DNA from: Escherichia phage vB_Eco_NR1 | Direction: 5' to 3' (one strand) | Sequence record: LR990704 | DNA: 64,000 nucleotides | In this document: piece by piece, positions 19,944 through 24,716 of the stretch | How positions within the stretch are numbered: the first letter of the stretch is position 1 | How the letters are laid out: every line of letters begins with the position of its first letter | Position numbers and translations under genes: made by a program | Notes under the pieces: model-generated | Told to the model about the DNA's origin: nothing | The model's database searches: none | Seen by the model: the letters and a program-made list of their open reading frames with translations, nothing else

Positions 19944-19975
19944 ATGGGGACCTTTCGGTCCCCATATTTTTATTT
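19944..19975 (+). terminator. intrinsic terminator after gene 54
   Basis: ATGGGGACC-TTTC-GGTCCCCAT stem-loop followed by ATTTTTATTT. Confidence 0.85.
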
Positions 19976-20260
19976 ACGGAATGAAATAAAAGCAGCAACT
20001 GAAGCAACTAAACTGTCTTCAATATAAACCTCAATTTTTACCGGAGCTTCTGACTCAAATTTACCTGTTACTACACCTTGGAAAATACTTTCAGTCTGTT
20101 CTGGCTTTGAAAAATTTTCAGAAGGAAAAATTCCGAACTTTTTATCTGTTCCAAAAATTTTGATAAATTCATCGTAAACTGCTTCATTAAAAGCATTATC
20201 AGCAGGAATAACGCCTTCAACTACAAGTTCTTGACCTAAAAAGCGTAAAGAAGATTTCAT
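19970..20260 (-). CDS. hypothetical protein, 96 aa
   Basis: ORF directly downstream of the repeated early-promoter/leader cassette (20268..20321), GAGGA Shine-Dalgarno. Confidence 0.65.
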   Translation of the reverse strand: MKSSLRFLGQELVVEGVIPADNAFNEAVYDEFIKIFGTDKKFGIFPSENFSKPEQTESIFQGVVTGKFESEAPVKIEVYIEDSLVASVAAFISFRK

Positions 20261-20267
20261 TTTGTGT

Positions 20268-20321
20268 TCCTCATGTTATGTCAGTAAGACTACTATAACA
20301 CAACACGAGGGACTTGTAAAC
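20268..20321 (-). repeat. 54 bp early promoter/5' leader cassette, copy 1
   Basis: 53 of 54 nt identical to 35115..35168; minus strand GTTTACA, 17 nt, TATAGT, then leader ending in GAGGA. Confidence 0.85.
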
Positions 20322-22378
20322 TACATTTTGAACTTTTTAGACATTCCGTTGATGTTAACCAAAGAAGCTAAGATTTGAGAAACTTCATTTTCCTCTTCTT
20401 TTGATTCTTCTACAAGGAATTGATTAAATCCAGCCATTGGACGAACTTCACCAGTTTCCATTAAATGGTCGCCATCATATACTGATTCTTCTAATTGTTC
20501 AGAAGGAGGAACGATTGTACCTTCTATTAGATACTTGTTATAAGCAGTTTCTTTCATAAAGTACGTGCTCACTTTATTAATCTTCAGTAAAATTCCACGC
20601 GGTAGAATAACTTCAGCTTCTGATGGAAATCCTGATAAATGACCTGGAACGATAACTTTGATTCGCTCAGCTCCTTTAATTACCATACCCACGCTAATTT
20701 CAGCATCTTCATTAGCATATGTAGAATGACTACCCATATGCATCAAATCTTCTGCATCAACGGAACCTTCTCCTTCACCAGAAAATACTGCACCGGAATC
20801 ATCTAGAGCCATATAGTTTTTACCATGCTCACCGAAGATATTTGGTTTAAGCGATGTGGATACGAAGTTCTTGAAATAGAACATTTTATTTTCAATGTTA
20901 TGACGCAAAGTTTTAAAGGTAACTTCTTGCCCACGATAAAGAGTAGTTCCTGGAGGAAGAACAGAACCTTTAGCAAATGCAGAATCCAACGTCTCGATGT
21001 GTTTAATAGCTCGTTCCATATATTCTTCACGGGTAGAATCAGGTTTACCTAAAAGGAACGAGTTCATTTCAACATATGAATCTGCACAATAATCTTCAAT
21101 TACATCAGACTCAGCCTGAGTTAATCCTTTTGGAGTTACTTCAGTGCTTGCGTATTCATATGCCTGAGCGGCAGATTCATTAATCAATTTATAAATGCCA
21201 TTCATGACAAATTGAATAATAGCTGTCTTTTCATCTGGTGTAGCTTTAGAACCTTTAACTAAATCATTGATAATTTTCTTAATAACATCAAAGCTATTAG
21301 AAATATTAATGTCAGCAAGATCGCTTAAAATTTTATCAGTTTTATAATCAAAGAATTCTTTATTCTTTAAATATTCTTGAGAACCTTGATATGTTATATC
21401 GCTCTGCAACTTGATAGATGGATCACGTAAACGTGCATGGGCTAATGCAATATGATTTCGGAAACTTTCTAGTTCATAATCGTTAGATTTAAAACGAGAA
21501 GCACTTCTCATACCACCGATAGCTCCTTTGCTAAAGTTTGAACCAATCTGAATAACGCCAGAGTTCATCGGACCTTCTGCTTTATATACCGGAACTTTAG
21601 ATTCAAACTCTTGATATTTCTTAGCAGCGAAGCTATCACCCTGAAGTGAAGCATCAACAGTAGAATATTGAGCTTGTGCTGCTAATCGACGACTAATTTT
21701 AGTTTTCTGAATAACAGCTTGGTCCGTGCGCTTATCATTTTCTAAAGCAATAGAAGCAGCAACAGCAACAGCTTTAGGAACAGCATTACCTGTTTTAACA
21801 TCTACATAAACATCACCAATCTTTGATTCAACTTTTGCGAATAACTCAGTTGAAATAGGAGGTACACCTGGAATGTCTTCTAAATTGGCATTTTTACGGT
21901 AAACCATAATATATGCGTACTTTTTATCATAATCCCAGATTTCCTTTAAAAGAACATATCGACCTGCTCCTTTAGTACGTACTAAACGGTCAGCAATAAC
22001 TTGCATTTGACGAGCTGCGCCATTTGTTTTACTTTTTAGTACGCGGAATAGGCATGCGTCGATTTTATACTGTTTCATTGTTTGAAGAGCAGTATCAAAA
22101 ACAGCATTAATGACGCCAATTGGATTTCCACCCAAGTTTCTAAGCTTGACTAACGATAATTTCTCGTTGACACCTATCATTACGATATGCATCATTTTGT
22201 CGCCTGGCTTAACGTTTTTATTCGTATCACCGCCAGAGGTGTATGTACAAAATCTAAATCCAGGAAGCACGCTTTCTTCACCGGCTTGAATAGCAAAAAT
22301 TTGTGGTATTTTATGCTTAGGATTTAAGTTAACAACCGGCGCCGAAGCGCCGTCAAATAATTCTGTAATAAGTTCCAT
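20321..22378 (-). CDS. Alt-like ADP-ribosyltransferase, second paralogue (685 aa)
   Basis: N-terminus MELITELFD.. almost identical to Alt; C-terminal region has Arg (YRGQ), STS (FVSTSL) and EAE (PSEAEVILPRG) ART motifs. Confidence 0.85.
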   Translation of the reverse strand: MELITELFDGASAPVVNLNPKHKIPQIFAIQAGEESVLPGFRFCTYTSGGDTNKNVKPGDKMMHIVMIGVNEKLSLVKLRNLGGNPIGVINAVFDTALQTMKQYKIDACLFRVLKSKTNGAARQMQVIADRLVRTKGAGRYVLLKEIWDYDKKYAYIMVYRKNANLEDIPGVPPISTELFAKVESKIGDVYVDVKTGNAVPKAVAVAASIALENDKRTDQAVIQKTKISRRLAAQAQYSTVDASLQGDSFAAKKYQEFESKVPVYKAEGPMNSGVIQIGSNFSKGAIGGMRSASRFKSNDYELESFRNHIALAHARLRDPSIKLQSDITYQGSQEYLKNKEFFDYKTDKILSDLADINISNSFDVIKKIINDLVKGSKATPDEKTAIIQFVMNGIYKLINESAAQAYEYASTEVTPKGLTQAESDVIEDYCADSYVEMNSFLLGKPDSTREEYMERAIKHIETLDSAFAKGSVLPPGTTLYRGQEVTFKTLRHNIENKMFYFKNFVSTSLKPNIFGEHGKNYMALDDSGAVFSGEGEGSVDAEDLMHMGSHSTYANEDAEISVGMVIKGAERIKVIVPGHLSGFPSEAEVILPRGILLKINKVSTYFMKETAYNKYLIEGTIVPPSEQLEESVYDGDHLMETGEVRPMAGFNQFLVEESKEEENEVSQILASLVNINGMSKKFKM

Positions 22379-22381
22379 GAT

Positions 22382-24478
22382 TTATCCTTGAACGAACTTG
22401 TAAGGCATGTTTGTAATATCTATGCAAGACGCAATAATTCCAAGAGATGATTCTACTTTCTGTTTAATATTTGATGAAACAAATGATGCAAAGTCAACTC
22501 TGTCTTCTATTTCAATATCACCTGTCATTGCAACTACTTCGCCAGTTTCCATTAAACGGTCACCGTCATAAATTACCGATTCGGTGAGTTCTTCGGTGGT
22601 CATAACTTCAGCTTGAATGAGTTTTGTATTATTAGACGTGGTTCCGTCATTATTAGAAGCATCAGTTATTTTATTAACTTTGACCATCAATCCGCGCGGT
22701 AGAATAACTTCGGCTTCTGTTGCTATTCCGAGACTTCCTGGATATACAACATTAACTTTATGAGCTCCATCAATTGCCCATCCTATTTGAACTTTAACGT
22801 ATTCAGGATTTTCTTTATACGCTCTTATTTCGTTTGGATTAATAGTTATTCCTTCTTCATTTTTATCAACTGTTAATTCATTGCGAGCTTCTGGTTCTAA
22901 AAGACCAATACCAGCATGTGTAATTCCAAAACGTCCAAAAATGATAGGAGTTAAAGAAGTAGATACAAAATTTCTGAAATAGAACACTTTATTTTTAACT
23001 AGTGCTTCGTATATAGGAGCAGTCATACTTTGAGCACGATAAACTGTAATGCCTTCCGGTATACGGTCACCATTTTCAAAAGCTGAATCTAAATTATTTA
23101 TAGCAGATTCAATTTCTTTTTCACTCATTATATCATATCGTTCTGGATTGTAACGACCTAAAAGAAGATTATTGATGTCTGTATATCCTGAACCACAATA
23201 CTCTCTAATGCCGCGCTTTTGTGATGGAGTATATTTAGAACCATCACGGGCAATAGTAATATCAATCATTGGACCTGCACCAATTCCGGAAAAGCTATAA
23301 ATCATTCGTTTGAGGAATTTAGTTTTTGCTGCATTCCAGGCATTTTTAGTTATTTCTCCCCAGACTTCATCTGGTTGCCCTTTACGAGTTTTATTATGTT
23401 TATCAAGCCAATTATCTTTATATTCTTCAAAGAATTTATTAACAGCTGCTGCGTATTTCTCTAAACATTTTATTGAAGTAGTTGGTTCATTTTTGATTGC
23501 GTTAAAAATTACATCTTTAATTTTTTCGGAAACTTCATCAACCTCACTTTTTGAAAAGAATTTATAGTCATAGTGAAGTTCATTCGCAGTTCCTTCGGCA
23601 ATAATTTTTGCTGCCTTAGTTTTAGAAGCTAATGAATTAATTCCAAGCTTCATTTCTTCTGCTTCGGGAATTAAAGGAGCGGTAGCAGGTTTATTGAAAT
23701 TAGCTGCGGTAGATTCATACTTCTGGAATAATTCACTTTCAAATCTAGAAGACTCTAACGATTGACTTTGTGCAATTGCTCTACGGGAAATTTTAACTTT
23801 AACGATTACAGCTTGGTCAGAACGTTTATCGTTTTCTTGTGCAATAGATGCTGCAATTGCCTCATTTTTAGTTACTTGAGCCCCAGTATCTTTATTGATA
23901 TAAACATCACCGACCTTCGATTCAACTTTAGTAAAGAGCTCGGTACTAATTTCCGGAACTCCTGGAATGTCTTCTAGTGATACATTTTTGCGATGTATAA
24001 GAATATATGCATACTTTTTATCATAATCCCAGAGTTCCTTAAGAAGGACGTATCTGCCACCTGAACGACTACGGATAAGTCTATCAGCAATAACTTGAAT
24101 TTGTCGAGCTTGACCAGCGGTTTTAGACTTAAGAATACGGAGCATACAGGCATCAATTTTATACTGACGCATTGTTTGCATTGCAACAGTAAAAACTGAA
24201 TTGATATAATTAATTGGGCTTGGACCAAGACCTTTTAATTTAGCAATTGAACCTTTAGCAGTTAATGTAAAAGGAACAATATGCATCATTTTATCGCCCA
24301 TCTTTAAATCGCGATTAGTATCACCTCCAGATGTATAGGTACATAAACGAAAGCCTGGCTGTTCAATTGCATCATCAACGTGAACTGAAAAAATTTGCGG
24401 TATTTTCTTCTTTGGATTTAAGTTTGTAATCGGAAGAGTAGTATCTTCGTCAAATAATTCTGTAATAAGTTCCATCAT
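22382..24478 (-). CDS. alt: Alt ADP-ribosyltransferase (capsid-packaged, injected)
   Basis: 698 aa; MMELITELFDEDTTLPITNLNPKKKIPQIF.. recognised as T4 Alt; R / STS / EAE motifs; late promoter and SD upstream. Confidence 0.9.
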   Translation of the reverse strand: MMELITELFDEDTTLPITNLNPKKKIPQIFSVHVDDAIEQPGFRLCTYTSGGDTNRDLKMGDKMMHIVPFTLTAKGSIAKLKGLGPSPINYINSVFTVAMQTMRQYKIDACMLRILKSKTAGQARQIQVIADRLIRSRSGGRYVLLKELWDYDKKYAYILIHRKNVSLEDIPGVPEISTELFTKVESKVGDVYINKDTGAQVTKNEAIAASIAQENDKRSDQAVIVKVKISRRAIAQSQSLESSRFESELFQKYESTAANFNKPATAPLIPEAEEMKLGINSLASKTKAAKIIAEGTANELHYDYKFFSKSEVDEVSEKIKDVIFNAIKNEPTTSIKCLEKYAAAVNKFFEEYKDNWLDKHNKTRKGQPDEVWGEITKNAWNAAKTKFLKRMIYSFSGIGAGPMIDITIARDGSKYTPSQKRGIREYCGSGYTDINNLLLGRYNPERYDIMSEKEIESAINNLDSAFENGDRIPEGITVYRAQSMTAPIYEALVKNKVFYFRNFVSTSLTPIIFGRFGITHAGIGLLEPEARNELTVDKNEEGITINPNEIRAYKENPEYVKVQIGWAIDGAHKVNVVYPGSLGIATEAEVILPRGLMVKVNKITDASNNDGTTSNNTKLIQAEVMTTEELTESVIYDGDRLMETGEVVAMTGDIEIEDRVDFASFVSSNIKQKVESSLGIIASCIDITNMPYKFVQG

Positions 24479-24498
24479 AGCCTCTCTAGTGTTTATTC

Positions 24499-24506
24499 TA
24501 TTTATA
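24499..24506 (-). promoter_or_regulatory. late promoter (minus strand) for alt
   Basis: Reverse-complement TATAAATA about 20 nt upstream of the alt ATG; fits Alt being a late, capsid-packaged protein. Confidence 0.65.
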
Positions 24507-24529
24507 AAATTAAAGGCCCGAAGGCCTTT
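24500..24529 (-). terminator. intrinsic terminator upstream of alt
   Basis: AAAGGCC-UUCG-GGCCUUU stem-loop followed by a U-rich tract on the minus strand. Confidence 0.65.
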
Positions 24530-24716
24530 AGTAATCTAGTGGTAAGAGAGTACGATATATTTCAAACTTTGGTCCTTTTTCATAGGCATCAAATGTTTCT
24601 GTAAATTTATTATAAGCGTATGCATCTACAAATTCGAGAATGACTTGTGATACAGAAGTAGAAACATCTCCACCTTCTTTTTGAGCAATGACAATTGTTT
24701 CTAAGTAAGCTTTCAT
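24528..24716 (-). CDS. hypothetical protein, 62 aa (alt.1-like position)
   Basis: Small ORF whose start overlaps the ligase stop; terminator hairpin downstream. Confidence 0.6.
   Translation of the reverse strand: MKAYLETIVIAQKEGGDVSTSVSQVILEFVDAYAYNKFTETFDAYEKGPKFEIYRTLLPLDY

Follow-up and report, generated by a model that had tools for sequence, protein, structure and literature searches.

Tandem alt and alt.-2 genes in a T4-like Escherichia phage: probable old, separately maintained paralogues of the Alt ADP-ribosyltransferase family

Alt of phage T4 (gpAlt, NP_049811) is an ADP-ribosyltransferase (ART) that is packaged and injected into the host. Capsid presence (~ 40 copies per head) and ejection with the DNA are established for T4 Alt only, and the biochemistry described for Alt (RNA polymerase alpha Arg265, MazF) likewise refers to the T4 allele alone. 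Here we describe the alt locus in a stretch of 64,000 nucleotides (nt) from Escherichia phage vB_Eco_NR1 (LR990704), called in its full length the window, in which two adjacent minus-strand genes of this family, alt and alt.-2, are arranged in tandem (Table 1). A previous reading made from the letters alone (the sequence-only reading) had reported two open reading frames (ORFs) of 698 and 685 amino acids (aa), and both were found; T4, as that reading also stated, has a single full-length alt.

The tandem arrangement is already known and is the usual condition in most relatives of T4 (T2 and T6 among them). The novelty implied in the sequence-only reading does not hold, as the pair is annotated in RB32, T2, T6 and about 400 Tequatrovirus genomes. 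T6 and T2 carry the same combination of 697 and 685 aa, the RB32 annotation of alt.-2 reads “apparent insertion in alt.-2; similar to alt”, and the T4 annotation regards alt.-1 and alt.-2 as the first part of alt, duplicated long ago. The alt.-2 genes of RB32, T6, T2 (where it is labelled alt.-1) and about 400 others are orthologous to the one in the window, 685 aa long and 95-99.6% identical; they occupy the same position with the same 3-nt spacing, and nothing material differs. These records label the product hypothetical or “Alt-like”. Paralogues of alt, one of them full-length, were reported in T4, RB49 and 44RR (Nolan et al. 2006, PMC1524935), and duplications in other Straboviridae concern 44RR ORF187c/188c, RB49 ORF183c and JSE gp190 (duplications noted in PMC1524935). 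A 2026 paper describes a pair of Alt-like paralogues sharing 43.29% identity in Tequatrovirus 6phi13 and SHFML-11, and suggests that their targets have diverged (PMC13600099). The pair is no new discovery, being widely annotated and with the same hypothesis in print, and its remaining interest is experimental. New in this analysis are the purifying selection on alt.-2, the age of the duplication, the conflict in grouping between N-terminal and ART domains, and the cassette difference in T4 Alt.

We consider it probable that alt and alt.-2 are ancient paralogues within the T4 Alt family, each maintained separately and coding for an arginine-specific mono-ADP-ribosyltransferase, and that both products would be synthesized late, enter the core of the prohead, be trimmed at both ends by gp21, the prohead protease, be ejected with the DNA, and ADP-ribosylate arginines of different host proteins. 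The window is T4-like (Tequatrovirus); over the segment 19900-24800, identity is 99.1% with Escherichia phage vB_EcoM-S1P5QW and 97-98% with RB27, RB32, RB3 and numerous others. The neighbours of the pair are alt.1 and the DNA ligase gene (gene 30) on one side, while the opposite side holds alt.-3, gene 54 and gene 48. The longest ORF of alt, 22382..24478(-), 698 aa, counts an extra in-frame ATG at 24476-24478 (ATGATG). All annotated homologues start at the second ATG (24475), and T4 Alt is published to lose six N-terminal residues; the start is therefore placed at 24475, which gives 697 aa.

Alt and Alt.-2 align end to end with 41% identity (E = 8e-158), and both match phrog_802 over the full length (1-685/696; E 5e-255 and 5e-272). 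Identity varies along the alignment, with about 67% over residues 1-240, of which the first nine (MELITELFD) are identical, 16-20% over residues 241-410, some 32% for the ART domain, and 23-42% for the tail at the C-terminus. The N-termini had been called almost identical, which is correct for the first nine residues and not for the N-terminal ~ 240. Compared with T4 Alt, Alt.-2 shows 41-48% identity overall. Pfam searches with the isolated N-terminal and central regions gave nothing significant, NCBIfam returned no family for Alt or Alt.-2, and PF26846, precomputed for homologues, was not returned by local Pfam scans. The N-terminal domain is proposed as a common packaging or core-association module of both proteins, and a GNAT (acyl-CoA N-acyltransferase) fold was among the candidates considered for it.

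Both copies keep the Arg / Ser-Thr-Ser / Glu-x-Glu signature. In a domain-only alignment YRAQ or YRGQ, FVSTSL and EAEVILPRG align with the Arg, S-T-S and E-x-E elements of T4 Alt, ModA and ModB, in agreement with the sequence-only reading, and a check for a lost catalytic Arg or Glu found both residues in each copy. Residues R482, S507, S509, E587 and E589 (alt.-2 numbering) are invariant in 29/29 homologues covering both paralogues. Pfam family PF03496 (ADPrib_exo_Tox), which represents the R-S-E clade, scores 128.3 bits with Alt (E 2.9e-37) and 72.1 bits with Alt.-2 (E 5.2e-20), both above the curated gathering threshold of 23.4 bits. In C2/C3-like ARTs, E-x-E, as opposed to Q-x-E, goes with arginine acceptors. 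An AlphaFold2 model of Alt.-2 built from a 29-sequence alignment (mean predicted local distance difference test score, pLDDT, 76.5; predicted template modelling score, pTM, 0.68) places the protein in the predicted ART (C3/VIP2-like) fold. Searches of the PDB, with single sequences and with profiles, yielded only distant ART toxins; no structure solved for Alt or for a near relative turned up.

The catalytic Glu pair of T4 Alt is E574 and E576 in 682-aa numbering, and the variant published as catalytically dead is “E577A” (PMC11404850). We infer that E577 corresponds to the second catalytic Glu only if T4 Alt is counted from the upstream ATG. The ATGATG at the start of alt (window 24473-24478) is also present in T4, and the ITE-6 and LTE-619 sites, determined by virion mass spectrometry of T4 Alt, use the numbering from the downstream ATG.

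Identity of alt and alt.-2 products to the bacterial ART toxins of the R-S-E clade (Vis, C3 exoenzymes, VIP2, iota Ia, CDTa; PF03496) is 14-23%. These toxins are delivered by a binary-toxin pore or by secretion, whereas delivery of the Alt type is by the phage head; compared with them, the Alt type adds a phage-specific N-domain of ~ 240 aa, a helical middle and two propeptides removed by protease. ModA and ModB share the R-S-E motif, and all three of its elements align with those of alt and alt.-2. In contrast, they are about 200 aa long, early and not packaged, and have neither the N-domain nor the propeptides, so that the 685-aa alt.-2 is not Mod-like. In JSE (Krischvirus), the full-length alt is followed by a stand-alone ART of 274 aa (YRG, STS, ECEVILP) without the N-terminal domain, a different solution for a second ART at the same locus.

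Expression anatomy is the same in the window and in T4, RB32, T2, T6, WL-3 and CT01 as regards the late promoter arrangement in front of alt, and time courses of transcriptome and proteome show T4 alt to be expressed late (PMC9697503). Between alt and alt.-2 the gap measures 3 nt, the Shine-Dalgarno sequence of alt.-2 (AAGGA) is situated within the last codons of alt, and no terminator-like site was found between the two genes on the minus strand. Based on these three features, co-transcription, as suggested in the sequence-only reading, is plausible and offers the simplest reading. That reading placed a late promoter before the upstream copy only; TATAAATA does precede alt, but a second exact TATAAATA is located inside alt. 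The internal copy is kept in RB32, T6, T2 and WL-3, lost in CT01, and absent in T4 and dhaeg. A sigma-70-like site, GTTACA-N16-TATAAT (23127-23154), precedes it. As a late promoter for alt.-2 the internal copy was rejected, being probably a coding coincidence, as it corresponds to the codons A-I-N-N and CT01 lacks it.

In T4, gp21 cuts Alt at ITE-6 and LTE-619, as determined by mass spectrometry of virions, and the cleavage takes off 63 C-terminal residues to leave a product of 68.2 kDa (PMC5694885). The mass computed for T4 Alt residues 7-619 is also 68.2 kDa, and this agreement indicates that the residue numbering is consistent. The L-I-T-E site for prohead protease that had been pointed out at the N-terminus is present as ITE-6 in both copies of the window, and both also carry an aligned C-terminal site (Table 1), with predicted mature sizes of 70.1 kDa for Alt and 69.2 kDa for Alt.-2. 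In 29 homologues the P1 Glu is invariant at both gp21 sites (E6, and E631 in Alt.-2), and P3 is L, I or (once) M, being L or I at the residue-6 site. The same motifs occur in Dhakavirus, Mosigvirus and Gelderlandvirus homologues. Segments of low confidence in the Alt.-2 model are only 1-10, 630-648 and 678-685, the first two with pLDDT below 50. These two coincide with the proposed cleavage sites, and their predicted disorder fits exposed, flexible protease substrates. Directly after the C-terminal gp21 site, a nearly invariant block, S-V/I-Y-D-G-D-x-L-M-E-T-G-E (alt.-2 residues 632-647, 20438-20485), was observed. It lies within the part that would be removed, is kept in both paralogues and in four genera, and holds a second triplet, L-M-E.

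According to the proposed mechanism, one late message would run from TATAAATA through alt and alt.-2, and possibly alt.-3, to the terminator at 19944-19965. Each protein would then enter the scaffolding core of the prohead by means of its related N-terminal domain and short propeptide. Trimming by gp21 would follow I-T-E at residue 6 and an L-x-E located about 55-65 residues from the C-terminus, to leave products of about 69-70 kDa, which would be retained in the head and ejected with the DNA. In the host, each would modify arginines of proteins using NAD+. Since the two proteins are strongly unlike in the central helical region, in the loop that links S-T-S to E-x-E, and in the residues immediately preceding E-x-E, different sets of targets are the most likely outcome.

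Several points weigh against this interpretation. Packaging, cleavage, injection, activity and targets of Alt.-2 are all inferred, and the literature searched yielded no work on Alt.-2 from any phage, be it by proteomics, genetics or biochemistry. The (L/I)-x-E motif is short, with 7-10 such triplets in each protein, and the motif alone is no proof of cleavage. A cleavable (L/I)-x-E propeptide, 6 residues long in Alt and with a putative role in targeting, is found in both copies; sufficiency of a propeptide for targeting has been demonstrated only for IPIII, with a capsid targeting sequence (CTS) of 10 residues (PMC9026906). Finally, T4 and about 90 relatives do well without alt.-2 and alt itself is non-essential, so a distinct role would be conditional.

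Some of these points speak for an alternative in which Alt.-2 is an active ART made late but not packaged, acting in the producing cell or as a transient component of the prohead core, so that Alt alone is injected. [quoted passage not shown] Nevertheless, we regard this alternative as unlikely. Alt.-2 keeps the whole architecture of Alt, comprised of MELITELFD, the N-domain (about 67%), both (L/I)-x-E sites and the invariant YDGDxLMETGE block, and such an architecture has no obvious use in a purely cytoplasmic enzyme; the cytoplasmic ModA and ModB as well as the 274-aa ART of JSE do without that N-terminal domain. Conserved architecture hence suggests that Alt.-2 is packaged.

Selection on alt.-2 was assessed among the window phage, RB32, T6, T2, WL-3 and CT01. 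The ratio of nonsynonymous to synonymous divergence (dN/dS) is 0.03-0.08, at a synonymous divergence (dS) of 0.10-0.26, and the gene is intact with 685 aa in 6/6 phages. For alt, dN/dS among the same T2/T6/RB32-type phages is 0.03-0.07, indistinguishable from that of alt.-2. The downstream copy is under strong purifying selection, a feature newly found here. A tblastn search disclosed a full-length alt.-2 orthologue of at least 80% identity in 402 phage records, and 772 sequences fall into a single protein cluster at 99% identity; in UTI-E4, alt.-2 is matched in two pieces. Metagenomic contigs carry alt.-2-like variants at 74% (P0009) and 50% (P0011) identity, without a close cultured counterpart. 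P0009 and an alt-like protein of 697 aa (P0018) both have a longest contig of 14,051 bases and may represent another tandem pair.

The Dhakavirus dhaeg carries a tandem pair of Alt-family genes (62 and 63) at the same locus, and these are the orthologues of alt and alt.-2 in their ART domains. In the ART-domain tree, alt.-2 groups with dhaeg_63 and alt with dhaeg_62, each with 100% bootstrap; alt and dhaeg_62 next join T4 Alt, and then the single-copy genes of Mosigvirus and Gelderlandvirus. Grouping of ART domains by paralogue across genera indicates, on the basis of these trees, that the duplication is older than the split between Tequatrovirus and Dhakavirus. The N-domain tree, in contrast, groups by genome, with dhaeg_62, dhaeg_63 and ATK47 together at 100%, and Tequatrovirus alt and alt.-2 at 72%. 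Identity between the window and dhaeg is 47% in the N-domain, 81% in the ART domain of alt and 57% in that of alt.-2, while flanking proteins share 62-65%. The domain comparison covered dhaeg, ATK47 and STML-198; between genera, the N-domain (42-47% identity) diverges faster than the flanking core proteins (62-65%). Recent gene conversion between the N-domains of the paralogues was considered and is ruled out by saturated dS (1.49). Likeness of N-domains within a genome is either old or held at the protein level, and could reflect an old conversion or a co-evolving partner such as the scaffolding core.

These results bear on the possibility that Alt and Alt.-2 are redundant, both being packaged and directed to identical targets (Arg265 of RNA polymerase alpha among them), with the second copy adding only dose or robustness. 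Both copies indeed belong to the same family and share the arginine-type E-x-E motif, the locus and the promoter, and T4-type phages lose one copy without obvious harm. We find redundancy still more doubtful than the absence of Alt.-2 from the head, as the paralogues have been distinct since before the Tequatrovirus-Dhakavirus split, their identity being about 32% for the ART domain and 16-20% over the central region, and each lineage is under strong purifying selection, while redundant copies are expected to homogenise or decay. Moreover, the N-domains stay alike between paralogues, and the effector parts do not.

The single-copy state of T4 is a secondary loss, produced by a 1-nt frameshift and a deletion of 1,699 bp between 9-bp CTAAAAAGT repeats. 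The short T4 ORFs alt.-1 and alt.-2 correspond to phrog_23015 and phrog_15247. The first (61 aa) represents Alt.-2 residues 1-54 followed by a frame shift, and the second (67 aa) represents residues 62-116. Compared as DNA, T4 and the alt.-2 region of the window correspond over nt 1-355 (95.5% identity), where T4 has lost 1 nt in an A-run; the correspondence resumes at nt 2046-2129, and both stretches include the 9-nt repeat CTAAAAAGT as their overlap. Because both CTAAAAAGT copies are present in the intact gene of the window and the T4 matches overlap there, the deletion in T4 occurred between direct repeats. It takes out the rest of alt.-2, including the ART domain. This remnant state was found in about 91 records, compared with roughly 400 that have the full gene. 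It is very improbable that alt.-2 is a functionless duplicate in decay, on its way to what T4 shows. In favour of decay, all that T4 and the about 91 records keep is a frameshifted, truncated remnant, and UTI-E4 matches in two pieces, but a pseudogene is ruled out by the dN/dS values and the intact ORFs in the six phages, the gene is full-length in the 402 records, all catalytic residues are invariant, and an orthologue is kept in another genus.

T4 also differs from the window in the upstream copy. The two alt genes share the locus, late promoter, architecture, R/S-T-S/E-x-E signature and ITE-6/LTE motifs, and their products are 70% identical end to end in a mosaic manner. Residues 1-200 are 98-100% and residues 201-250 are 94% identical, with dS of 0.105 over 1-245. 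Identity falls to 24-36% over residues 251-400 (dS 1.38 over 246-410) and 44-64% over residues 401-600 (dS 1.18 over 411-600), and in the tail, residues 601-697, it is 84-91%. For the ART domain, identity between the two amounts to 44-66%. The divergent cassette (residues 246-600) corresponds to positions 22676-23740 of the window. A cassette of the window type was found in about 351 phage records, and, judging from hit patterns, some phages appear to pair a T4-type alt with a second Alt-family match.

Tentatively, the alt locus of T-even phages can be viewed as a two-slot modular system of injected effectors, in which a genome-specific loading module is combined with reassorted central/ART cassettes. 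Loading into the head would be the task of the N-terminal module together with the two propeptides that protease removes, this module being alike in both paralogues of a phage and different from genus to genus. The cassettes would be old and deeply diverged, with alt of either the T4 or the T2/T6 type, and alt.-2 present or deleted. We hold this extended view to be possible, although somewhat short of probable.

Features of the locus are collected in Table 1. Downstream of the pair, alt.-3 comes with an early-promoter-like site of its own, TTTACA-N17-TATAGT (20292-20320), and the terminator mentioned above, which is bidirectional, lies behind it. T4 mutants that escape the CmdTAC defence system do so through C-terminal extension of Alt.-3 (PMC11618068). 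On the upstream side, alt.1 (24528-24716, 62 aa) matches Pfam PF24647, “Phage blade protein” (E 1.9e-29), and overlaps the ligase stop codon by 4 nt.

Table 1. Positions of alt, alt.-2 and associated features in the window
Feature	Position	Strand	Remarks
alt (upstream copy)	22382..24475	minus	697 aa from annotated start; R480, S505-T506-S507, E587-x-E589
alt.-2 (downstream copy)	20321..22378	minus	685 aa; R482, S507-T508-S509, E587-x-E589
alt.-2 N-terminal alpha/beta domain	21659..22378	minus	aa 1-240; alt counterpart 23756-24475
alt.-2 central all-helical region	21134..21658	minus	about aa 241-415; alt counterpart 23246-23755; most diverged part
alt.-2 ART catalytic domain	20513..21133	minus	about aa 416-622; alt counterpart about 22580-23245
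alt propeptide, codons 1-6 (MELITE)	24458..24475	minus	ends in gp21 motif I-T-E
alt.-2 propeptide, codons 1-6 (MELITE)	22361..22378	minus	ends in gp21 motif I-T-E
alt L-T-E, codons 630-632	22580..22588	minus	counterpart of T4 LTE-619; cleavage would remove 65 residues
alt.-2 L-E-E, codons 629-631	20486..20494	minus	aligned C-terminal gp21 site; cleavage would remove 54 residues
Late promoter TATAAATA, T4-type	24499..24506	minus	upstream of alt; followed by Shine-Dalgarno GAGAGG (24481-24486)
Terminator-like hairpin	24511..24530	minus	after alt.1, just upstream of late promoter; sets 5' limit of the unit
alt/alt.-2 gap	22379..22381	minus	3 nt between alt stop (TAA) and alt.-2 ATG
Second exact TATAAATA	23095..23102	minus	inside alt, codons A-I-N-N, 717 nt upstream of alt.-2
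CTAAAAAGT direct repeats in alt.-2	22031..22039 and 20332..20340	minus	flank the 1,699 bp deleted in T4
alt.-3	19970..20260	minus	96 aa, DUF5498, phrog_1739; last gene of block

Knowledge of injected phage ADP-ribosyltransferases comes almost wholly from T4 Alt, and T4 is atypical in two respects: its alt.-2 is deleted, and the central and catalytic cassette of its Alt is 24-66% identical to that of T2, T6, RB32 and the window phage. The literature searched gave nothing on the biochemistry of T2/T6 Alt, or on links between Alt paralogues and anti-defence, beyond remarks at the level of annotation, and results obtained with T4 may not carry over to the T2/T6-type Alt of the window. If Alt.-2 is packaged, most T-even phages would start infection with two different ARTs, and targets in host takeover or counter-defence may have been missed. 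If the two-slot view is true, the injection of two arginine ARTs that differ in their host targets would be common to most natural T-even phages, these targets possibly belonging to counter-defence, such as the toxins of toxin-antitoxin systems, and T4, with one slot deleted and a minority cassette in the other, would under-represent the system.

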